Positions 1,976 through 28,136 of a DNA stretch of 64,000 nucleotides are shown piece by piece (position 1 is the first letter of the stretch; the number at the start of each line of letters is the position of its first letter). The DNA comes from Pyrinomonadaceae bacterium (GTDB lineage: Bacteria; Acidobacteriota; Blastocatellia; Pyrinomonadales; Pyrinomonadaceae). Below the pieces are notes generated by a model. It was not told the origin of the DNA and searched no databases. It saw only the letters and a program-made list of their open reading frames with translations. Both the position numbers and the translations under genes were made by a program. The DNA is taken from positions 1,890 to 65,889 of the forward strand of contig DATNOG010000113.1 in assembly GCA_035601415.1 (NCBI GenBank), in the 5' to 3' direction.

Positions 1976-3094
1976 TTAAGAATTCTTCTCTTCAAGTTGC
2001 CGCTTGATCATCAGCTCCGCAAGCTGCGGCACAACTTCCCAGGCGATTTCCTGCACAACTTTTTCGGAAAGCTGTTCAACGGCACGCCGCGCGATTGCGT
2101 CAATCAGTTGCGGCGACAATTCGCCGGATGCATTAACTGATCGAGTACTGGTTTCGCTAGCTGCCGCTTGCGTGTTCTCCACCTTGAGCGCTTGCTCGGG
2201 TTCAACAGCCGCCGCCTGCTCGACCGGCGCTTCCATAATGCGCGGAAACTCCTGCGTGCGCGCCATCTGGTCCAGCGTAGGAGTTGAACGCATCGAGCCT
2301 ACGCTACCGCTATCGCGCTTGCGACGCATGAATGACGGCGCTGAATACGCGGCCACAGCGGGCGAAGGCTCAGCGGGTTCGTCGAGGTCTAAATCCAAAA
2401 CAAAGTCGTCTGCGATACTGGCCCCGGCAATTTTCACGTCACTGAGATCAAGCAATACGTCAGCCGCACTGTCGTCAGTTTGTGAAGCCCCGTGCAACTC
2501 GGGACGTTTGCTTTCTATTGTTGGATCAATATCAAGCGGTTTCGCCTTTTGCGCTTCCTGCTTTGCCGCGTAGTAGGCAACGACTTCAGCCTGCTCATCC
2601 GGAAGCGGGAGCGTATCGGCAGTCGTGATTTGCAGTTCTTCTTCCGTCAGTTTTTCCGGTTCAGGCGGCTCGCGGTGGTGCGGCAGTTCCGCTGTCGGAA
2701 TCCGTTCCTCTGCCGCGCGGCCGGAAACGAGCACGCCAACTTTATCGATAAGCTTGCGGATTGATTGAAAAGGCTTCGTCAAGGTATCGTCCGCGCCCAC
2801 CCGGCGCGCCTCCGCTTCGTCGAACGGCTCAAACGAGCCTACCAAAAGGATAACAGGAATATGCTTCAGCCGGTCATTTTGTTTTATGTGCTCGCAAACT
2901 TCGTAACCGCCCATCTGCGGCATGAAGACATCGGCGAGCACAATATCCGGCGCAAACTCGTTTAACTTTTCAATCGCCTCGCGGCCATTGTTGACAGTTA
3001 ATACGGTGACGCCCTCGTCGGCAAAGGTGAGGTCCACAACCTTTTGAATCGTGATTGAATCGTCGGCAAGTAGAAGTTTTTTGCCAGCTAACAA
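1976..3094 (-). CDS. response regulator: N-terminal receiver, long Pro/Glu/Asp-rich linker, conserved helical C-terminus (RomR-like architecture)
   Basis: 372 aa with TTG start. Receiver motifs: KKLLLADDSITIQK..DIVLADVFMPQMGGYEV..TKPF. About 200 aa of low-complexity acidic/Pro-rich sequence, then ELSPQLIDAIARRAVEQLSEKVVQEIAWEVVPQLAELMIKRQLEE. Confidence 0.8.
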   Translation of the reverse strand: MLAGKKLLLADDSITIQKVVDLTFADEGVTVLTVNNGREAIEKLNEFAPDIVLADVFMPQMGGYEVCEHIKQNDRLKHIPVILLVGSFEPFDEAEARRVGADDTLTKPFQSIRKLIDKVGVLVSGRAAEERIPTAELPHHREPPEPEKLTEEELQITTADTLPLPDEQAEVVAYYAAKQEAQKAKPLDIDPTIESKRPELHGASQTDDSAADVLLDLSDVKIAGASIADDFVLDLDLDEPAEPSPAVAAYSAPSFMRRKRDSGSVGSMRSTPTLDQMARTQEFPRIMEAPVEQAAAVEPEQALKVENTQAAASETSTRSVNASGELSPQLIDAIARRAVEQLSEKVVQEIAWEVVPQLAELMIKRQLEEKNS

Positions 3095-3256
3095 AGCTTG
3101 GTAACCTTAGCTGAATTGCGCCACTGGCGGGCTCAAGATTTGAATACAGTTGGCGTCTTGCTGTTTTCGATCTGGCGGCTTAAAAATAGCTGAGCCGCAT
3201 TTCGAAACTAACACCCGCGCCAATTGCCAGTCAAGAACTTTAGGCTGTTGAATTTG

Positions 3257-4180
3257 CTATCGGGCAATGGAACCGGTCAACTGGATATCATCGCCGGTCT
3301 GGTCTTTACCGTCGGGTCCCAATGAATGAAGCGCGAAGCGATCGCGCTGGCCGTCGTATTTGTAAGGGTGATTCCAGGGATCGACGCGAATGATTTTGGA
3401 AAGATACCGCGGATTTAGGTGATCGATTAGGACCGCCTGGCTATCGGAAACTACATAGAAGCCTCGTTCCCGGCGATAACGCTCGAGCGCCTGGGCCATC
3501 GTTTCCATCTCGCTGCGCGCTTGCGATCGCTTCTTTTCGTTCAGCGCGTCCATTAGTGGTTGCAGCTTTACCCACTCGCGATTTCCAGTGCGCAACTCAG
3601 ACACGTGCCAACCCTTGCCCTCATTCACTAAACGCGCGGTCACTCTAATCCAGGCAACCACCACCGCGGATGCCCGCGAAGCAAGCGGCACAGGCATTGG
3701 ATCGACTTCCTGGATGCGCACTGCGTCCGACGGCACATCGATGCCGGTCAAAACTCCAACCAGGCAGCGCGCGCGTTTTGCGCTCGGGTTGAGCGCAGCA
3801 GAGCCCTTGAGCGGAGGATCCGGCGCATTGCATTCGTCCGTCGCGAGATCTGCCCGGGCCGCATCAGCAATGACGTCGATTGCCTCCCAGCGATCCTGCG
3901 CGGTCTGTATTTCGGCGATGCGCCAACGACCACGCTCATCCTGCTCAAACTTGAAAACATTGCGAATGTCGGCCGTGACTTCCGCGGGCGGGCCGGGGGT
4001 AATTGCCTTCACGCGCACCGCGCCGTTGGTCAACTCGAATCCAGGCATGCGAGTGATGGCTTTGCGCGCCTGTTTGGAACTCAACTCAGCGCGCGCGTCA
4101 GCTGCTGCGAGCGTTACAACGCAGCACGCGAGCAGCGGAAGCAAACTGAATGTCCGACTTTTCGATAAGCGAATTGTCAT
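3257..4180 (-). CDS. secreted protein with a C-terminal type II secretion GspG-like (pseudopilin C-terminal) domain
   Basis: 307 aa. Signal-like N-terminus SLLPLLACCVVTLAAADA. C-terminus MAQALERYRRERGFY..RVDPWNHPYKYDGQRDRFALHSLGPDGKDQTGDDI matches the T2SS-G pattern. No prepilin N-terminal motif. Confidence 0.7.
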   Translation of the reverse strand: MTIRLSKSRTFSLLPLLACCVVTLAAADARAELSSKQARKAITRMPGFELTNGAVRVKAITPGPPAEVTADIRNVFKFEQDERGRWRIAEIQTAQDRWEAIDVIADAARADLATDECNAPDPPLKGSAALNPSAKRARCLVGVLTGIDVPSDAVRIQEVDPMPVPLASRASAVVVAWIRVTARLVNEGKGWHVSELRTGNREWVKLQPLMDALNEKKRSQARSEMETMAQALERYRRERGFYVVSDSQAVLIDHLNPRYLSKIIRVDPWNHPYKYDGQRDRFALHSLGPDGKDQTGDDIQLTGSIAR

Positions 4181-4616: not shown

Positions 4617-5681
4617 TTAAACTTCCACCGCGCGGCTGCTTTCTCCAGCTTGCAGGGAAAGTTCCGCCGCCAGCTTGATCGCCGCAACCATGCTTGAGTG
4701 TTCTGCAATTCCCTTGCCCGCAATGTCGAATGCCGTACCGTGATCGACTGAGGTGCGAATGAACGGCAACCCCAGAGTAACATTCACCGCCTCGCCAAAG
4801 GAAAGACATTTTACCGGGATCATCGCCTGGTCGTGATAACAAGCTATTACCGCATCAAACTCACCACGCGAAGCCCGCAAAAATACTGTGTCCGCCGAGA
4901 ACGGCCCGGCAACATTCATCTCGTCAACACCGTGACACTCTTCGATAGCCGGCATAATTTCTGAAGCCTCTTCGACGCCGAATAATCCGCCTTCCGCGCC
5001 ATGAGGGTTGAGCGCAGCAACAGCCAGCCGCGGCCGTTCGATACCCCAACGTCTCAGCTCGCGATGAGCCAGGCGAATAGTGCGCACCATGCGATCGCGC
5101 TGCACGAGTCTGATCGCTTCTGAAAGGGGCACGTGTGTCGAGATCAAAACCACGCGCAGATTTTCGGCCACAAAAGCCATCGCGTATTCCTCGCTGCCGG
5201 TCAGGTGCGCGAGAAATTCCGTGTGACCGGGGAAACTGTAACCAGCGAGAAAAAGCGCGCGCTTGTTTATCGGCGCTGTGGCTATCGCATCGACGCTGCC
5301 GGCGGCGCAGAGCTCAACGGCGGATTCTATATAACCTGCTGCCGCGCGGCCCGCGGCGCCGGATTCAATGCCGGGCTCAATAAAACCACTGATGTTGTCG
5401 AGATGATAGATTATCGGCTCGGACAGTCGTTCAGGAATTGGTTCACCTTTACGGATGATGTCATAGCCTGAGCGTAGGTCGAGTGTTCGCGCTGTGTGCG
5501 CCAGCAATTGCGCATCGCCGATAATTACGGGGACGCAGCAGCGCATAATCTCTTCCTCTGCAACTGCCTTCAAAACGACTTCCGGACCAATTCCCGACGG
5601 GTCACCCATGGTTATGGCGACGCGCGGCAATGACCCGGATGACCTAGGTTTCGGCGCTGGATTATTGGCGAACTGCCTCAT
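4617..5681 (-). CDS. pdxA: 4-hydroxythreonine-4-phosphate dehydrogenase
   Basis: ITMGDPSGIGPEV, GHTEFLA and VDHGTAFDIAGKGIA motifs. Start set at ATG 5681 (ORF track gives TTG at 5702). Confidence 0.9.
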   Translation of the reverse strand: MRQFANNPAPKPRSSGSLPRVAITMGDPSGIGPEVVLKAVAEEEIMRCCVPVIIGDAQLLAHTARTLDLRSGYDIIRKGEPIPERLSEPIIYHLDNISGFIEPGIESGAAGRAAAGYIESAVELCAAGSVDAIATAPINKRALFLAGYSFPGHTEFLAHLTGSEEYAMAFVAENLRVVLISTHVPLSEAIRLVQRDRMVRTIRLAHRELRRWGIERPRLAVAALNPHGAEGGLFGVEEASEIMPAIEECHGVDEMNVAGPFSADTVFLRASRGEFDAVIACYHDQAMIPVKCLSFGEAVNVTLGLPFIRTSVDHGTAFDIAGKGIAEHSSMVAAIKLAAELSLQAGESSRAVEV

Positions 5682-23248: not shown

Positions 23249-23689
23249 TTAGACTCCCAGTTTCGCGATTGCCGCTTCGTCGTCTTCCGTATAAGGATCC
23301 GCAAGCAAACGCGCTTTGAAAACATCCAACTCCCAAACTTCGAGATAGGTCAGATAACCCAGCACCGCAACGTCGCCCATTACGCCGGCAGCTTTTCGCA
23401 GCAGCGGATGAATCAACAGACGTCCCTGGGCATCGAGCGTCGCCTGCTGTCCGTAGTAGTTCGTCCTATCAAGGAACTTGCGCCGGGCCGGGTCCATCGT
23501 CGGCAAGAGCGAAAGTCGTTGCTCTATCGATTCCCACTCCGGCAAGGGGTAAATCCGAACGTTGTCACCCGTAAGACTAGTTATGTAGAATTGGCCGCCG
23601 TGCTTCTCGTCGATTAACCGACGAAATGGAGTCGGCACCTTTAGCCGACCCTTGGCATCTACCCGGGCCGTGTAGTTTCCCCGCAGCAT
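23249..23689 (-). CDS. mraZ: transcriptional regulator MraZ
   Basis: 146 aa: [26 protein letters not shown]. First gene of the dcw cluster. Confidence 0.93.
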
Positions 23690-23767
23690 AGAGTTGACCG
23701 ATCAATAGTTTTAGCGGGTGGCCGTTTTAGGAAAAGTTACTAATGATCGGTTCGCTACGAGGTTGGA

Positions 23768-23792
23768 CCCACTTCCGACCACTTTTGACCAC
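23768..23792 (-). promoter_or_regulatory. candidate MraZ operator: three direct GTGG(T/G) boxes at exact 10-bp spacing
   Basis: Minus strand reads GTGGTcaaaaGTGGTcggaaGTGGG, starting about 10 nt after the -10 hexamer and 80-100 nt upstream of mraZ. Confidence 0.6.
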
Positions 23793-23802
23793 CCGACGCT
23801 GG

Positions 23803-23831
23803 ATACTACGCTCCATCATTTTGGCTGTCAA
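23803..23831 (-). promoter_or_regulatory. candidate dcw (Pmra-like) sigma-70 promoter
   Basis: Minus strand reads TTGACA-17 nt-TAGTAT, immediately upstream of the triple box. Confidence 0.55.
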
Positions 23832-24035
23832 TACCAATATCCGCGAAAACCTTAAGTTTTCAGGCGCTTGGATCCCGCAAACAAACTTACTGTTCGCCTA
23901 TCGTTCGTCGGGAGTGGTAAAAGAGCTGAGGTTCCTTCAAGAAAGAATTTACCAACGAGGGATCCCGCCTGTAACTTTTGATCAAGTATCGGTGTCTAAT
24001 TAAGTGGAAACAAGGTAAGAACTGTGTAAGTTTCC

Positions 24036-24065
24036 TTGAACTTTCATGTGGATTGAGCGTATATT
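24036..24065 (+). promoter_or_regulatory. candidate promoter of the RHH/2-TM module
   Basis: TTGAAC-18 nt-TATATT. A weaker second candidate, TTGACG-18 nt-TATCAG, lies at 24080-24109. Confidence 0.35.
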
Positions 24066-24205
24066 CTGGGTGAAAATGCTTGACGCGGGAGTGAAAGCCA
24101 TGTTATCAGAGTTGTGCGCCCTTTCCCGGGTGCCTTTGGTCATCGCCTCTCTCGACTCCCAAACCTCTCTTCCCGTTTCAAATTTCAACAAAGAGGAGTA
24201 TTGCT

Positions 24206-24427
24206 ATGAGTAGTGCAGCAGCAAGAGGCTTTACGTTTACCATTGACGAAACAACCGAGAGAGTTTTAGATAGTCTGAAATCTCGATTGGGCAAGACTTC
24301 AAGAGCTGAGGTTTTGAGAAAAGCTATAGCTCTTTTGGAAGTCGCAACTTCGGCTAAAGATGATGGTAACGATATCGCAATCGTGGACAAAAACGGTGAT
24401 ATCGTTACGAGGATCATGCTCGTGTGA
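24206..24427 (+). CDS. ribbon-helix-helix (CopG/Arc-like) DNA-binding protein, antitoxin-like
   Basis: 73 aa. AAGAGGAG RBS 7 nt upstream. FTFTIDETTERVLDSLKSRLGKTSRAEVLRKAIALLE fits the strand-helix-helix pattern. About 43% G+C by hand count. Confidence 0.7.
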   Translation: MSSAAARGFTFTIDETTERVLDSLKSRLGKTSRAEVLRKAIALLEVATSAKDDGNDIAIVDKNGDIVTRIMLV

Positions 24428-24771
24428 CCGATACTTCTAATCAGATAAGTCTAACTGAACGAGAAGGCAAGCTCCGCCTAGATAGTGAACTCAATCTTAC
24501 GGCTATTGAGGCCAGGCTTCGAATCGAAGAGGGCCGGGTTCGCCTAGAGAGCGGGAGAACAGACATTGCGCTACGCCGACGTATGGCCTATTGGCTGCTT
24601 GGTTTGTTCTCAGTAAACACCGCGGGCGCACTTGCTATGATTTTTTTGGTTGGCTTTGGCAAAATGTCCTTATCGGAGAAAGTTATAATTTCGGTTCTAG
24701 GAGCAACCGTGGTCGAAGCCGCCGCGATGCTTGTAACAGTGACAAAGTATTTATTCCCCGCCAAGAGCTGA
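24424..24771 (+). CDS. small membrane protein: charged helical N-terminal half plus a C-terminal 2-TM hairpin; no family recognised
   Basis: 115 aa. GTG start overlaps the upstream stop (GTGTGA). Hydrophobic stretches YWLLGLFSVNTAGALAMIFLVGF and VIISVLGATVVEAAAMLVTV. Confidence 0.6.
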   Translation: MTDTSNQISLTEREGKLRLDSELNLTAIEARLRIEEGRVRLESGRTDIALRRRMAYWLLGLFSVNTAGALAMIFLVGFGKMSLSEKVIISVLGATVVEAAAMLVTVTKYLFPAKS

Positions 24772-24799
24772 GCAACGACAATTCGTTGAATATACAGAT

Positions 24800-24816
24800 A
24801 GGCCCGCGCTGGGCCT
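24800..24816 (+). terminator. weak terminator-like hairpin after the 2-TM gene
   Basis: AGGCCC-gcgct-GGGCCT followed by tgatgtatatt. The T-tract is poor. Confidence 0.3.
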
Positions 24817-24871: not shown

Positions 24872-25675
24872 ATGAATCTTGATTCCGGCGGATTTGTCGG
24901 ACTTCTCTTCTTTGGCTTGTTGGCGGCAGCCGCAAACCTTGTCGGCGGATTTGTCCTTATCAAGTCGGGGGCGCACCGCTTCGGCGAGCGCTTTCTGAAG
25001 TATCTGGTAGCCCTCGGCGCCGGCTTTATGCTGGCTGCTATTTTCCTTGAGATACTGCCTGAGACCATTAGCATTTGGACTTCGAATCTTGGTGGCAAGA
25101 CAGCAGCGGAAGCCATCATTGGAGCGATGACGCTTCTCCTGGCCGGCTACCTGCTCATTCAACTGTTCGAACACACGATCGCTCCGCACTTTCACTTCGG
25201 CGCGGAAACTCATCCGGAATCTTTCATGCGACCTTCGGCAGCATACGCCGCGGTTGGAGGACTTTGGATTCACACATTTTTTGACGGCGTTTCAATCGCC
25301 GCAGCATTCCTGGTGAACTTTCGCGTTGGCTTACTGGTGTTCATTGCAATTCTGCTGCACAAGATGCCTGAGGGGTTTACAGTTGCCTCGATCATGCTGG
25401 CGTCGGGACGTTCGTCGCGAAAAGCTCTGTGGGCGACAGCTGCGATTGGCGCGGCAACTCTAGCAGGAGTTATCGCGGTGGCATTATTGAATACCAGAGT
25501 AGGGGGTGCGGTGGGCTACGCACTTCCCTTCTCGGCTGGCGTCACGTTGTATGTCGCCGCGAGCGATCTGATTCCAGAGGTGAATCGCAAAGAAGAAAGA
25601 AACCCAATGGTCTCGATTGTCGTTTTTGTAGGTGTGGCGCTCTTCTACTTGTTGCACCGGGTTATCGAAGGATAG
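24872..25675 (+). CDS. ZIP-family divalent metal transporter (ZupT-like)
   Basis: 267 aa, polytopic: HTFFDGVSIAAAF, LLHKMPEGFTVASIM. Confidence 0.85.
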   Translation: MNLDSGGFVGLLFFGLLAAAANLVGGFVLIKSGAHRFGERFLKYLVALGAGFMLAAIFLEILPETISIWTSNLGGKTAAEAIIGAMTLLLAGYLLIQLFEHTIAPHFHFGAETHPESFMRPSAAYAAVGGLWIHTFFDGVSIAAAFLVNFRVGLLVFIAILLHKMPEGFTVASIMLASGRSSRKALWATAAIGAATLAGVIAVALLNTRVGGAVGYALPFSAGVTLYVAASDLIPEVNRKEERNPMVSIVVFVGVALFYLLHRVIEG

Positions 25676-25743: not shown

Positions 25744-26634
25744 TTGAAAAGACTCGACAAAATTTTTGTTAGCGGTCGGAGCGGTTTCAGCCGCGCAATG
25801 GGCTGCGTGATCCTTTTGCTGGTATTTCAGCTTGCAGCGCAGGCTCAGCATGGGGAATCCCCTATCCCACTTCCCACGCCTTTTACTCCGATCGTCGACT
25901 ACGCCAACGTCATCGATGCCGACACCAGGCAAAAGCTGGAATCGATTTACATAAATCTCAAGCAGCGCGCTGATATTGAGTTTGCAGTTGTTACGGTAGA
26001 CACCACCGGCGATCAGGATATTTTCGATTACTCGTTGGCAGTTGCGCGCGGTTGGGGAATCGGCCCGAAAGGAGGAGAGAAAAACGGCTTTCTACTGCTG
26101 GTCGCGATTAAGGATCGGAAATACTTTACGCAGGTCAGCGATCATCTCGAAGGTGATTTGAACGACGGACTAGTAGGTGAGATTCAGCGCACGCGGCTGG
26201 TGCCACAATTCAAAAAGGGAAACTACAGCCAGGGCATCTACGATACGGTTCAGACTTACGTGGCTACGTTGGCAGAGAAGCGTGGCTTTAACATCGACGG
26301 TATTGATCAGCGCTACGCTTATCGCGAAGCGCCCACCCAGCCTGCAACCAGTTCGGGACCTGGCGGACTCTCAAGTTCATGCTGCACGCTAATCATTATT
26401 CTGTTCATTGTGGCACTGGTGTTGTCGTCTTTTCGAAAAGGCGGCAAAGGAGGCGGGGGTTGTCTCAATATGTTTCTGCTGGGCTCGCTGCTCAATAGCG
26501 GCAGTCGCGGTGGGTGGGGCGGCTCAAGCAGCGGTTGGGGTGGCGGCGGATTCGGCGGCGGCGGTGGTGGTTTCGGCGGTGGCTTTGGCGGCGGTGGTAG
26601 TTTCGGTGGCGGCGGCGCTGGTGGTGGTTGGTAG
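25744..26634 (+). CDS. TPM-domain protein (YgcG-like) with a TM segment and Gly-rich tail
   Basis: 296 aa: IVDYANVIDADTRQKLE..EFAVVTVDTTGDQDIFDYSLAVARGWGIG..GFLLLVAIKDRKY. One TM, then GGGGFGGGGGGFGGG. The start (TTG 25744 or ATG 25798) is uncertain. Confidence 0.85.
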   Translation: MKRLDKIFVSGRSGFSRAMGCVILLLVFQLAAQAQHGESPIPLPTPFTPIVDYANVIDADTRQKLESIYINLKQRADIEFAVVTVDTTGDQDIFDYSLAVARGWGIGPKGGEKNGFLLLVAIKDRKYFTQVSDHLEGDLNDGLVGEIQRTRLVPQFKKGNYSQGIYDTVQTYVATLAEKRGFNIDGIDQRYAYREAPTQPATSSGPGGLSSSCCTLIIILFIVALVLSSFRKGGKGGGGCLNMFLLGSLLNSGSRGGWGGSSSGWGGGGFGGGGGGFGGGFGGGGSFGGGGAGGGW

Positions 26635-26713
26635 TAGGACAGACATTCCTGCCTGTCTGTTTTGGAAAACTGCGTTACCACGGATAGACAGTTCAGGAAT
26701 TCCTGCCTGTCTG
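26634..26713. repeat. REPIN-like doublet of the GGACAGRCAGGAATGYCTGTCC hairpin family
   Basis: gtaggacagacattcctgcctgtctg (26634-26659) and agacagttcaggaattcctgcctgtctg (26686-26713). Confidence 0.75.
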
Positions 26714-26752
26714 TTCTGAACATGATTTTCTGTTAGTATTCGAGACAAAGCG

Positions 26753-27484
26753 ATGACAAAGACAGTGGTCCAGGAAGCGCTAAATGGTCTCATCGGAGAT
26801 CTGCGCGCCACGCACGGCGATAACCTCGCTTCTGTTGTGCTGTACGGATCGGCGGCCGCCGGCGATCACGTTGAACTGCGTTCGGATTACAACCTGCTGA
26901 TAACTCTAAATCGCATTACTCCGGAGGATTTGCGTTTGGCCCAGGCGCCGATGAGGGAATGGCAACGGCTCGGTCATCCGCTTCCGGTTTATTTCACTAC
27001 CGAGGAACTCTCAGACGCCGCTGACGTATTTCCAATAGAGTTTCATCAAATGGCTAAAGCGCGCGTTGTGCTTTACGGGAAAGATCCGTTTGAGTTTGTG
27101 AAGTTATCGGATGCGAATCTGCGACATCAAACGGAATATGAACTGCGTAGTAAACTGATTCAGCTTCGCCGCCTGTACATTCCGGCGTCAGTTTCAATTG
27201 AGAAGCTATGCGATTTGATGAGCGACAGCCTGGCGAGCTTTGCGGCGTTGTTTCGCGCCGTACTAATGTTGCACGGTGAAGACGCGCCGGTCGCGAAACC
27301 TGAATGCGTTCGCGCTACTGCCCGGCGTTTTCGGCTTGACCCGGAACCTTTTGAAAAGATTTTCGCATTTCGCGCCAGCGGTTATTTGCCCCCAACTGAG
27401 AAAGAAGCAAACGACATTTTCGGCGCTTACCTGGAACAGATCGATCGCGTCATCCAGGTAGTAGACGAATTCGATCAGGCATGA
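26753..27484 (+). CDS. minimal nucleotidyltransferase-fold protein with an all-helical C-terminal half (possible HEPN-like)
   Basis: 243 aa: VVLYGSAAAGDHVELRSDYNLLITL (GS..D-x-N in place of GS..D-x-D). The C-terminal half contains RAVLMLH (an R-x5-H string). Confidence 0.7.
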   Translation: MTKTVVQEALNGLIGDLRATHGDNLASVVLYGSAAAGDHVELRSDYNLLITLNRITPEDLRLAQAPMREWQRLGHPLPVYFTTEELSDAADVFPIEFHQMAKARVVLYGKDPFEFVKLSDANLRHQTEYELRSKLIQLRRLYIPASVSIEKLCDLMSDSLASFAALFRAVLMLHGEDAPVAKPECVRATARRFRLDPEPFEKIFAFRASGYLPPTEKEANDIFGAYLEQIDRVIQVVDEFDQA

Positions 27485-27497
27485 TCAGGAGATTGAA

Positions 27498-28136
27498 ATG
27501 ACTCAAAGAAGACTTTGGTTACTCGCTCTGGTTATTTTTGTCGCCGCCATCGCTAGCGGTTGCAGCTACAACACGCTCACGACGAAACATGAAAATGTGA
27601 AGGGCAAATGGGCGAACGTAGAGACGCAGCTACAGCGTCGCAGCGACTTGCTCAACAACTTGATCGAAACTGCAAAACTCGCGGGCGTGCAGGAGCAGGA
27701 AGTATTCGGCAAGATTGCCGAGGCGAGATCAAAATTGCTGAATGCTGCACAGCAGGCGCCTCAGGGCGAAGGCGGCGACAAAAGTCCCGAACAAAAGCAG
27801 GCCGTCATCGATGCCGCGAACAGTTTCGGCGGGACCATTGGCCGGCTGCTCGCGTTGCAGGAAAACTATCCGCAGTTAAAGTCGAACGAGAATTTCTTGA
27901 AAGCGCAGGACGAGGTCGTGGGAACTGAGAACCGCATCGCCACCGCGCGCAAGGACTACAACGAAGCGGTGCAGGATTACAACACCACGCGCGCGCGCTT
28001 TCCCACCGTTATCTCCGCAAAGCTCTTTGGTTTTAAGGAAGAGCCTTATTTCAAAGCTGAGGAAGGCGCGACCACGGTTCCGAAGATTGATTCAAACAGC
28101 CTGCGCCCAAATCAAAGTCCGGCACCGACAAAGTAA
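27498..28136 (+). CDS. lemA: LemA family protein
   Basis: 212 aa. N-terminal TM/lipobox-like AIASGC. YNTLTTKHENVKGKWANVETQLQRRSDLLNNLIE .. ENRIATARKDYNEAVQDYNT..FPT. Confidence 0.9.
   Translation: MTQRRLWLLALVIFVAAIASGCSYNTLTTKHENVKGKWANVETQLQRRSDLLNNLIETAKLAGVQEQEVFGKIAEARSKLLNAAQQAPQGEGGDKSPEQKQAVIDAANSFGGTIGRLLALQENYPQLKSNENFLKAQDEVVGTENRIATARKDYNEAVQDYNTTRARFPTVISAKLFGFKEEPYFKAEEGATTVPKIDSNSLRPNQSPAPTK

Follow-up and report, generated by a model that had tools for sequence, protein, structure and literature searches.

What role is played by two short, overlapping genes of low G+C content is the question raised by this locus, in which the pair lies between mraZ (23249-23689, minus strand), on the dcw side, and a ZIP transporter gene (24872-25675, plus strand) that begins 100 bp past the second of them. 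In the ORF list of the window, by which we mean the whole 64-kb stretch of DNA analysed, both are on the plus strand; ORF1 (24206-24427) has an ATG start and encodes 73 aa in 222 nt, and ORF2 (24424-24771) has a GTG start and encodes 115 aa. They are joined in the hexamer GTGTGA at 24422-24427, where the GTG of ORF2 (24424-24426) lies over the TGA stop of ORF1 (24425-24427), giving a 4-bp overlap (GTGA), and homologues of ORF2 share this start position, opening there with ATG or GTG. A preliminary description of the sequence had recorded both the overlap and the setting between dcw and ZIP genes, which the coordinates confirm, and had proposed that the pair represents a small membrane-active effector controlled by a ribbon-helix-helix (RHH) protein, resembling a toxin-antitoxin (TA) or abortive-infection system. 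Every comparative test that was run, concerning gene pairing as well as superfamily, supports this proposal. On sequence comparison, we give a probability of about 0.7 to the module being a chromosomal type II TA or abortive-infection cassette, formed of an RHH antitoxin and a pore toxin. It represents a new combination of partners inside a known kind of system, and not a new kind.

Both ORFs are real genes under purifying selection. In comparison with a syntenic locus (L001), which has the same mraZ-module-ZIP order at 75% nucleotide identity and is saturated at synonymous sites, ORF1 has a pS of 0.78 and a pN of 0.049 and ORF2 has a dN/dS of ~0.11, such that selection on the two is comparable to that on flanking housekeeping genes. 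The G+C content of ORF1 is 43.2% (96/222, the very count given in the preliminary description) and its GC3 is 0.39; ORF2 has 49.4% and 0.48, against a GC3 of 0.60 +/- 0.04 and a GC of 0.551 +/- 0.023 among the long ORFs of the window (n=41). The composition of the module falls within the lowest 2.7% of equal-size windows and is unlike that of the ZIP gene. Horizontal acquisition, as originally suggested, is plausible from this composition and from the variable contexts of the pair, but the insertion between the dcw promoter region and the ZIP gene is old, because L001 shares the arrangement at such divergence; the module has been kept stably at one chromosomal site in two diverged lineages. 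Beyond the coding region, nucleotide similarity to the non-syntenic loci is not significant, and the ends of the cassette are therefore not mappable. Rfam and tRNA scans of the whole 64-kb window returned nothing.

ORF1 is an RHH protein, an assignment made at the family level. The protein itself matches Pfam RHH_1 at E = 0.0028 with 18.0 bits, under the 20.5-bit cut-off, and RHH_1 is matched by 21 of the 21 members of its family (best 1.5e-6). The AlphaFold model (pLDDT 84) places helices at residues 15-28 and 33-52 and strands at 57-60 and 66-70, so that an N-terminal strand (FTFTID) and two helices are followed by a beta-hairpin tail at the C-terminus (~residues 53-73). Its top Foldseek matches are the RHH domains of MazE, NikR, ParD, CopG and PrpA, with probabilities of up to 0.96, yet E-values of 0.28 or worse. 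Together, the family matches and the structural neighbours bear out the strand-helix-helix signature of the CopG/Arc/MetJ type that had been read from the letters. ORF1 has neither a Panacea match nor the C-terminal metal-binding domain of NikR, and searches of PDB sequences with profiles of the ORF1 and ORF2 families found nothing. By analogy, ORF1 is most likely an antitoxin and autorepressor.

ORF2 is best read as a putative membrane toxin. A charged, helical N-terminal half (residues 1-54, with 10 D/E and 11 K/R) carries E-x-x-L-R-[ILV]-E-like repeats and is followed by a juxtamembrane GRTDIALRRR, a first transmembrane (TM) helix (~55-78), a short loop (GKMSLSEK) and a second TM helix (~87-108). 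Hydropathy defines the two hydrophobic segments at 57-79 and 86-107 (Kyte-Doolittle > 1.6 over 19 residues), and an AlphaFold model of moderate confidence (pLDDT 69, pTM 0.36) contains one helix from 8 to 77 and another from 83 to 110; the charged and repetitive first half and the paired membrane segments of the preliminary description are thus both recovered, with two TM helices predicted. Polar residues N65, T66 and E/Q98 are conserved in the family alignment. ORF2 has no significant match in Pfam, NCBIfam or PADLOC, and a DUF5652 match (E = 0.0027, below cut-off) was judged to be a hydrophobic chance match and rejected. Foldseek comparison of the model with the PDB returned just generic helical hairpins (E >= 0.9). 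An exhaustive profile search against 1.84 billion proteins assigned the C-terminal 70 residues to a family that comprises at least 543 clusters at 50% identity (E <= 1e-3), with the signature (R/Q)(T/Q)DIxLR(K/R)xxA, two TM helices and then ...LSxxV...LGxTVxxAA...VT(K/R)YLFP.

Close homologues of ORF2, which belong to Acidobacteriota, have an RHH gene directly upstream in 10/10 distinct contexts, mostly with a 4-bp overlap (the contexts named are the window with L001, L002-7, L008, L009/10, L011, L012, L013-15, L018 and L019), so the unlinked arrangement that would have spoken against the proposal was not encountered. At an eleventh locus (L016) the RHH and ORF2 genes are linked within ~500 bp and rearranged. 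The surroundings of the pair differ from locus to locus and abound in mobile and defence genes: L013 and L018 have DDE/SWIM transposases adjoining it, L013 also has a P63C gene and a type IIG methyltransferase-like gene, a TIR-WD40 gene occurs in the context of L011 and an HTH_17 gene in that of L008. In two of ~11 loci ORF2 is frameshifted beside an intact RHH gene, which would fit decay of the toxin; alternatively, the frameshifts could be assembly errors. Some short family members (e.g. P0045 on L021) are without an upstream partner in the available sequence, so a toxin function paired with a protein antitoxin need not apply to the whole family. The close family has no match in phage, plasmid or IMG/VR collections, and PADLOC has none for the module. 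When ORF2 and several distant homologues were compared with the phage and plasmid collections by tblastn there was again no match, though HMMs find members, because tblastn is too insensitive for a short hydrophobic domain. A metagenome scan with a distant sub-family added two short contigs and no more.

Beyond the close family, a profile built from acidobacterial members only retrieved distant homologues from the 1.84 billion proteins at E-values of 3e-10 and 2.9e-7. As a control on specificity, the profiles used here matched no other ORF when 2739 from the window and every locus were compared, many membrane proteins included. These relatives lie directly behind partners of other types. On L024 the homologue directly follows a full-length SocA/Panacea gene, identified by a tblastn match to annotated SocA antitoxins, with a 14-bp overlap; on L023 it is behind a truncated Panacea-like gene, and on L028, the Salinibacter ruber plasmid pSR56, behind the annotated PanA WP_013060214.1. 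At one metagenomic locus (L020) it follows an M78 ImmA-type peptidase (PADLOC: CapP 4.7e-30, RmrA 4.6e-15) with an 8-bp overlap. The two-TM domain is therefore found with three mutually unrelated partner types, namely RHH, Panacea (three loci) and M78 peptidase, and such partner swapping is a hallmark of TA networks.

The M78 arrangement recurs in Gordonia phage Kita, where gp32 is an M78 peptidase (CapP 6.7e-26, RmrA 3.3e-15) and gp33 (119 aa) lies downstream of it with a 4-bp overlap. The superfamily profile A2 scores gp33 at 30.6 bits, against 5 bits for the runner-up ORF of that locus, and in hhalign it aligns to gp33 over 89 columns (probability 95.8%, E 7.4e-9). ORF2 by itself matches gp33 weakly, the narrow acidobacterial profile A1 likewise gives a weak match covering TM2 only (38%, E 3.3e-4), and the link to Kita is therefore a transitive, superfamily-level homology of a short hydrophobic domain. 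The motif LS(E/D)xVxIxxLxATVVE...T..LF is common to the ORF2 superfamily and gp33. From adjacency, domain content and consecutive numbering, we infer that gp33 is RmrT_D5 (YP_009301394.1). With YP_009301393.1 this protein forms the RmrA_D25/RmrT_D5 pair of M78 peptidase and transmembrane toxin, which is reported to bring about rapid depolarisation and permeabilisation and to protect against coliphages (PMC10440598); pore formation and depolarisation have been shown experimentally for RmrT_D5 (Ernits et al. 2023, PMC10440598), and 'Panacea : D5' pairs are listed in NetFlax (PMC10440598). Whereas ORF2 had previously seemed to belong to no named family, its two-TM domain can now be placed in a superfamily with Panacea- and M78-partnered members and Kita gp33, and, judged by these profiles, its membership of the NetFlax D5/RmrT_D5 family holds at the superfamily level.

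Adjacent, co-oriented and overlapping small genes, a DNA-binding RHH partner, a patchy and mobile distribution (10 contexts) and the exchange of partners (RHH, Panacea, M78) are all features of type II TA systems, and each is found here. The toxin layout is that of RmrT_D5 in the RosmerTA system of Kita: the N-terminal part is cytoplasmic, a basic motif lies next to the membrane and two TM helices make up the C-terminal end, in proteins of similar length (119 and 115 aa) and with each gene downstream of its partner at a 4-bp overlap. However, the N-terminal halves of the two toxins have no sequence relationship, Kita pairs its toxin with an M78 ImmA-type peptidase rather than an RHH protein, and the Kita system is phage-borne while the present module is chromosomal, in Acidobacteriota. 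RosmerTA systems are recognised by RmrA, with its M78 domain and usually an HTH; no M78 gene adjoins the module, and PADLOC made no such match. PanT proteins of E. coli [T3], Bartonella [T12/D11] and Helicobacter [T4] are likewise membrane toxins (Kurata et al. 2022, PMC8832971), which depolarise membranes in experiments using HokB as comparator (PMC8832971). PanA-PanT and ORF1-ORF2 are both overlapping pairs in which the antitoxin gene (here putative) comes first, and PanT, like ORF2, combines a charged or coiled-coil N-terminus with C-terminal TM helices; the likeness drawn here to T3, T4 and T12 (WP_000019185.1, WP_095295403.1, WP_077993242.1) is one of gene order and layout, and the PanAT antitoxin is Panacea (DUF4065, PF13274, SocA), for which ORF1 has no match. 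In the classical RHH systems (ParD-ParE, RHH-type MazE-MazF, CcdA-CcdB and FitA-FitB) a small RHH antitoxin with a short C-terminal tail, similar to ORF1, is encoded first and overlaps the toxin gene, the same order as ORF1-ORF2. Their toxins, however, are soluble enzymes or gyrase poisons, in contrast to a small integral membrane protein, and their antitoxins have a disordered or helical toxin-wrapping segment where ORF1 has a predicted beta-hairpin. The type I and type V toxins Hok, TisB and GhoT are small hydrophobic proteins of the inner membrane and dissipate the membrane potential, but they are controlled by antisense RNA or mRNA cleavage and not by a co-translated protein partner, they show no sequence relationship to ORF2 and they are without its 50-residue cytoplasmic domain.

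In the mechanism that we propose, ORF2 would be a small inner-membrane toxin of the superfamily that holds the NetFlax 'D5' RmrT of Kita. Its N-terminal helical half probably faces the cytoplasm, because an RRR cluster precedes TM1 and the positive-inside rule applies, and N65, T66 and E/Q98 within the TM helices may allow it to oligomerise into a pore which, by homology to Kita RmrT_D5, would dissipate the membrane potential. An RHH dimer of ORF1 would repress the operon from a site in the ~200-bp leader, while its C-terminal beta-hairpin tail would bind the cytoplasmic N-terminal or juxtamembrane helix of ORF2 and render it harmless; RHH antitoxins provide the analogy for this contact, as does the predicted contact of PanA with the helix preceding the TM region of PanT_D11. 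The 4-bp overlap would couple translation, so that no toxin is produced without antitoxin. Were the antitoxin lost, through proteolysis or through the shut-off of host expression in phage infection or stress, the toxin would be freed and would cause depolarisation and growth arrest. The cassette would have no functional tie to the dcw side or to the ZIP gene. No new principle is implied, since protein toxins that depolarise membranes and are paired with protein antitoxins have been described before. If the reading is right, an unannotated family of at least 543 clusters, without a Pfam, NCBIfam or PADLOC model, gains a functional anchor and a signature; RHH becomes a third antitoxin type for this toxin domain, beside Panacea and ImmA-type peptidases, the partners that we found described; and the partner-swapping network of type II TA and defence systems is extended into Acidobacteriota, a phylum with few characterised systems. 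The module would also be an easy test case for the neutralisation of an integral membrane toxin by a soluble DNA-binding antitoxin.

Several other explanations have to be weighed against an RHH antitoxin with a pore toxin. ORF1 might be a regulator paired with a benign membrane protein, such as a stress-responsive factor, or a membrane anchor that sequesters the RHH protein and thereby serves as a sensor of membrane state or an anti-repressor, with no part in addiction or defence. Stable inheritance at one site under selection like that on the housekeeping neighbours would suit a domesticated, non-toxic function, as would the failure of PADLOC to recognise the module, the apparently solitary state of some short family members, and a cytoplasmic helix in ORF2 that could serve as a docking site. 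We nevertheless consider this unlikely, given that the two-TM relatives follow three unrelated antitoxin-type partners, that the Kita member, which we take to be RmrT_D5, is a toxin whose pore formation was demonstrated by experiment, that contexts are variable and rich in mobile elements, and that two loci combine a frameshifted ORF2 with an intact RHH gene. A variant, that the pair is a membrane-tethered switch in which the two-TM protein senses membrane potential or envelope state and uses its cytoplasmic repeat helix to capture the RHH repressor reversibly, thereby controlling transcription, seems to us a long shot. Were it true, the CCTCTCCC motif of the leader, described below, would act as the operator of the RHH protein or control translation, and D5-type 'toxins' would represent a broader class of membrane-state sensors, their toxicity on over-expression being a side effect.

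An origin as the remnant of a prophage or other mobile element, comprising a holin/antiholin-like or superinfection-exclusion membrane protein and a small repressor, is improbable. It draws on matches of 17/46 family members to the C-terminal end of phrog_5346 (best 2.3e-13; ORF2 itself 1.9e-4), on a weak match of one member to a Pfam holin family, and on the position of Kita gp33 near the integrase in a prophage-expressed region. Yet neither in the window nor in most related loci is the module close to a lysin, integrase or other phage gene, and the close family is absent from IMG/VR and the phage collection. Typical holins carry their charged domain at the C-terminus, unlike ORF2, where it is N-terminal; a phage class II holin was rejected on these grounds, the holin matches among relatives being sporadic and weak. 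Moreover, an exclusion or abortive-infection role overlaps with the TA reading and does not replace it. Lastly, ORF1 could be a NikR- or CopG-like metal-responsive regulator of the ZIP gene, with ORF2 an accessory membrane protein of the transporter, a scenario with very little chance of being correct. The ZIP gene does start 100 bp past ORF2 in the same orientation, no convincing terminator separates the two, and NikR domains are among the Foldseek matches of ORF1. But a ZIP gene stands beside the pair only in the window and syntenic L001 and in none of the other nine contexts, which contradicts regulation of ZIP by ORF1, the counter-explanation considered in the preliminary description; with 73 aa and only a beta-hairpin tail where NikR has its metal-binding domain, ORF1 was rejected as a NikR-type regulator, and the module differs from ZIP in composition.

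The candidate signals around the ORFs that were noted at the outset have fared differently. The ribosome-binding site of ORF1, AAGAGGAG at 24191-24198 on the plus strand, was identified correctly, 7 nt before the ATG at 24206, and GGAG-type sites occupy the equivalent place in all related loci. A GC hairpin after ORF2 (AGGCCC-GCGCT-GGGCCT, 24800-24816, plus strand) is present with a 6-bp stem, read from the sequence, but it is not above chance, has no T-run and was not called by the terminator scan. Similarly, TTGAAC-N18-TATATT does occur at 24036-24065 (plus strand), but it matches the consensus at only 9/12 positions and is partly conserved in syntenic L001 only; the region contains 3 promoter-like sites against 1.3 +/- 1.3 in shuffles, and such sites are therefore not above chance. 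An alternative at 24080-24109 (plus strand), read from the sequence and alignment, comprises TTGACG, an 18-nt spacer ending in TGT, and TATCAG. The consensus promoter scan did not call it; the block TTGAC...TGTTA(T/G)C aligns among the window, L001 and the non-syntenic L013, and we infer a candidate promoter here. Minimum-free-energy folds paired CCUCUCC with the Shine-Dalgarno sequence in 4/6 leaders, and an anti-SD hairpin was rejected because duplex energies were no better than those of dinucleotide shuffles (p = 0.05-0.94). Inverted or direct repeats common to the loci, sought as an operator, yielded no consistent element. Between promoter candidate and ribosome-binding site there is a pyrimidine-rich motif, GCCTCTCTC ... 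CCTCTCTTCCCG (24145-24175, plus strand), containing a conserved 8-mer, CCTCTCCC, that occurs once in the whole 64-kb window, where ~1 occurrence is expected. The exact 8-mer is found 60-95 nt upstream of the RHH start in L001, L009, L012, L013 and L018, and the motif may represent a candidate operator or leader element.

The module consists of two overlapping plus-strand genes, ORF1 (24206-24427; ATG start, 73 aa) and ORF2 (24424-24771; GTG start, 115 aa), whose stop and start codons share the sequence GTGA, with the ribosome-binding site of ORF1, AAGAGGAG, at 24191-24198 (+). This is the arrangement given in the preliminary description, and its hand count of 96 G+C among the 222 nucleotides of ORF1 is exact. 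GC3 is 0.39 in ORF1 and 0.48 in ORF2, against 0.60 +/- 0.04 across the window's 41 long ORFs, and in composition the module falls among the lowest 2.7% of equal-sized windows. On one side it is flanked by the minus-strand genes mraZ-rsmH-ftsL-ftsI and on the other by plus-strand genes for a ZIP transporter, a TPM-domain protein, a nucleotidyltransferase-like protein and LemA. A syntenic locus (L001) is 75% identical in nucleotide sequence over 2457 nt, and comparison with it gives pN 0.049 and pS 0.78 for ORF1 and dN/dS 0.11 for ORF2. Both genes are under purifying selection, and it follows that the cassette is an old one that has been kept at its present position.

ORF1 is a ribbon-helix-helix (RHH) protein, as its strand-helix-helix signature had suggested. 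Alone it scores 18.0 bits against Pfam RHH_1 (E 0.0028), which is under the Pfam cut-off; its family, a tight one, comprises 22 clusters, and all 21 aligned members match RHH_1 (best 1.5e-6). The AlphaFold model (pLDDT 84) comprises an extended N-terminal segment, two helices (15-28 and 33-52) and, at the C-terminus, a beta-hairpin (57-70), and its best Foldseek matches are the RHH domains of MazE-mt1, MazE9, NikR, ParD, CopG and PrpA. Foldseek probabilities reach 0.96, but no E-value is better than 0.28, as a monomeric fold of 45 residues would lead one to expect; PDB sequences searched with a profile gave no match.

The charged N-terminal half and two hydrophobic segments claimed for ORF2 are confirmed by residue counts (11 basic and 10 acidic residues in positions 1-54) and by hydropathy, 19-residue segments exceeding Kyte-Doolittle 1.6 at residues 57-79 and 86-107. 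AlphaFold predicts, with moderate confidence (pLDDT 69), a long helix (8-77) that continues into TM1 and a second at 83-110; a Foldseek search with this model found nothing. A word-indexed search returned 17 relatives, all metagenomic, none of them named or carrying a Pfam domain, and a genome scan assigned this close family to Acidobacteriota, with one MAG from Pyrinomonadaceae and one from an uncultured member of the phylum. When a profile of 17 acidobacterial sequences was run against 1.84 billion representatives, it recovered 543 proteins with E <= 1e-3, of which 69 reach E <= 1e-10. Conservation lies in the C-terminal 70 residues, in the order (R/Q)(T/Q)DIxLR(K/R)xxA juxtamembrane motif, TM1, the short G.M.LS loop, and TM2 with VT(K/R)YLFP at its end; the N-termini range in length from 0 to about 120 residues, often with coiled-coil character. 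No Pfam family was found among the members, and 17 of 46 match the C-terminal end of the phage family phrog_5346 (best 2.3e-13; ORF2 itself 1.9e-4).

The possibility that ORF2 relatives are unlinked to RHH genes is not borne out: an RHH gene, orthologous to ORF1, lies directly upstream of the close homologue in every such locus, and nearly always the two overlap by 4 bp. The surroundings differ. The pair stands between mraZ and ZIP in the window and L001, before YkuD and Usp genes in L002-L007, near an HTH_17 gene in L008, behind an M28 peptidase gene in L012, between a type IIG methyltransferase-like gene, Y1 and DDE transposases and a P63C gene in L013-L015, beside a SWIM/DDE transposase gene in L018, near a 1086-aa TIR-WD40 gene in L011, and in separate contexts in L009/L010 and L019; linkage to ZIP is thus not general. 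A divergent module, L016 (GCA_011392945.1, WUUC01131232.1), has the reverse order, with the ORF2 homologue (602-1039) preceding the RHH gene (1534-1791) by about 500 bp, a 71-aa ORF between them and no ORF2 downstream of the RHH gene. ORF2 carries a frameshift in L001 (5880-5905; one nucleotide inserted within TM2) and in L019 (4995-5317; between TM1 and TM2). In each case the alternative frame still encodes the conserved remainder, and the RHH gene is intact; these are either recent toxin inactivations or assembly indels.

Two of these neighbourhoods merit separate mention. The TIR-WD40 protein of L011 (2198-5458), of NLR-like or defence-like architecture, is encoded about 1 kb downstream of the pair, with a 101-aa ORF of unknown function between. 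The mobile and defence-rich stretch at L013 1915-15237 holds a Y1 transposase, an HSDR_N-like gene, a methyltransferase gene of Eco57I/MmeI type, two DDE transposases and P63C. It also holds overlapping HTH_3 and SecB-like genes, a pair that may be a chaperone-assisted toxin-antitoxin system.

More distant homologues have other partners. Member P0113 (L024) follows, with a 14-bp overlap, a full-length SocA/Panacea gene whose product matches annotated SocA-domain antitoxins (tblastn); a 121-aa member (L023) follows a truncated gene that aligns with the final 33 positions of the Panacea model (E 0.012); on Salinibacter ruber plasmid pSR56 (L028), WP_148278295.1 (4e-14 with the diverse superfamily profile, A2) follows the annotated PanA WP_013060214.1; and P0184 (L020) follows, with an 8-bp overlap, a 182-aa M78 peptidase (PADLOC CapP 4.7e-30, RmrA 4.6e-15). 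Upstream of the short member P0045 (L021) there is no credible ORF in about 290 bp. An antitoxin-type partner is therefore present in four of four informative distant loci, from two families unrelated to RHH, and, as a control, the family profiles were run on 2739 ORFs from the window and every locus retrieved, and matched no other ORF.

Both partner types have validated counterparts. Panacea-neutralised membrane toxins, in which a charged or coiled-coil N-terminus is combined with TM helices at the C-terminus, depolarise E. coli (Kurata et al. 2022, PMC8832971). In the RosmerTA pair of Gordonia phage Kita, RmrA_D25 (YP_009301393.1, Peptidase_M78) and the transmembrane RmrT_D5 (YP_009301394.1), the toxin causes rapid depolarisation and permeabilisation, and anti-phage defence is narrow; 'Panacea : D5' pairs also occur in that dataset (Ernits et al. 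2023, PMC10440598). In the Kita genome (KU963257; accession from PMC5559632), gp32 is a 178-aa M78 peptidase (CapP 6.7e-26, RmrA 3.3e-15) and the overlapping gp33 (119 aa) scores 30.6 bits with A2, against 5 bits for the next ORF in the locus. Profile alignment (hhalign) of gp33 gave 95.8% probability with A2 (E 7.4e-9, 89 columns) and 38% with the narrow acidobacterial profile A1 (E 3.3e-4, TM2 region), the common core being LSEKVIISVLGATVVEAAAMLVTVTKYLF in ORF2 and VSDAVMIAWLSATVVEVLGLAYIITSDLF in gp33. From adjacency, domain content and consecutive numbering we infer that gp32 and gp33 are the published proteins, and by these alignments the NetFlax D5 toxin is a predicted member of the ORF2 superfamily. 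The superfamily has Panacea and ImmA-type peptidase partners, as D5 has, and a third, RHH. The module itself is neither Rosmer nor PanAT because their defining antitoxins are absent.

The metagenomic L020 pair of M78 peptidase and 2-TM protein (2780-3776) has the same architecture and PADLOC pattern, CapP above RmrA, as Kita gp32/gp33 (L032, 7741-8633), and sits inside a capsule/polysaccharide cluster (Polysacc_synt, LytR_cpsA_psr, Wzz, CpsB). Both M78 peptidases lack an HTH domain, which D25 (ImmA/RmrA) proteins often carry (PMC10440598).

Established here are module anatomy, gene linkage, partner swapping, homology to a pore-forming toxin and purifying selection on both genes. We consider it probable (about 0.7) that the module is a type II toxin-antitoxin or abortive-infection cassette with a toxin of the D5/RmrT-like membrane-toxin superfamily; RHH linkage, partner swapping and toxin homology support the original proposal of an RHH-controlled small membrane effector. 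That ORF1 is a regulator beside a benign membrane protein is unlikely, since three antitoxin-type partners and the Kita data would be left unexplained. Still less likely is a holin or exclusion remnant, a reading that overlaps with an abortive-infection role but for which the module in the window offers no phage context, and regulation of ZIP by ORF1 is very improbable, being contradicted by nine contexts without ZIP.

Under the toxin-antitoxin or abortive-infection reading, the RRR cluster before TM1 suggests an N-in topology, and ORF2 might oligomerise into a pore through the conserved polar TM residues N65, T66 and E/Q98. The RHH tail of ORF1 would neutralise it by binding its cytoplasmic helix, ORF1 may repress its own transcription, and loss of the antitoxin would release the toxin. 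We found no RHH partner described for this toxin in a search that stopped short of the NetFlax dataset edges; what is new is the combination with RHH, together with how large the unannotated toxin family is.

Of the regulatory signals first described, the string TTGAAC-N18-TATATT (24036-24065, +) is present, but it is a 9/12 match of a kind no commoner in this region than in shuffled sequence; likewise the hairpin AGGCCC-GCGCT-GGGCCT (24800-24816, +) exists, but it has no T-run and the terminator scan made no call there. A promoter-like TTGACG-N18-TATCAG (24080-24109, +) aligns with L001 and non-syntenic L013, and the consensus promoter scan did not call it. A search for an ORF1 operator identified none. 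The pyrimidine motif CCTCTCCC(G) at 24145-24175 (+) is strikingly conserved 60-95 nt 5' of the RHH start in five loci of different contexts (L001, with three tandem copies at 5306-5331, L009, L012, L013 and L018), and may be an operator or leader element; the exact 8-mer occurs once in the 64-kb window, with about one expected. It could pair with the Shine-Dalgarno sequence, but as a leader hairpin this was rejected, duplex energies being no better than those of shuffles.

Direct repeats GACCCAC/GACCAC/GACCAC, 11 and 10 bp apart (23766-23792; GTGG(G)TC on the minus strand), lie between the mraZ start and a 10/12 promoter-like site, TTGACA-17-TAGTAT (minus strand, 23831..23803). They resemble the boxes that serve MraZ as operator in the E. 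coli dcw promoter; on that reading, dcw control sequences would extend to near 23835, with about 370 bp remaining 5' of ORF1. Beyond ZIP, the cluster at 25744-28136 encodes a TPM-domain protein that ends in a long Gly-rich tail (about 26400-26634; GC 0.63-0.64, strong GC skew), a 243-aa nucleotidyltransferase-like protein (weak NTP_transf_2 match) and LemA, and is also kept in L001.
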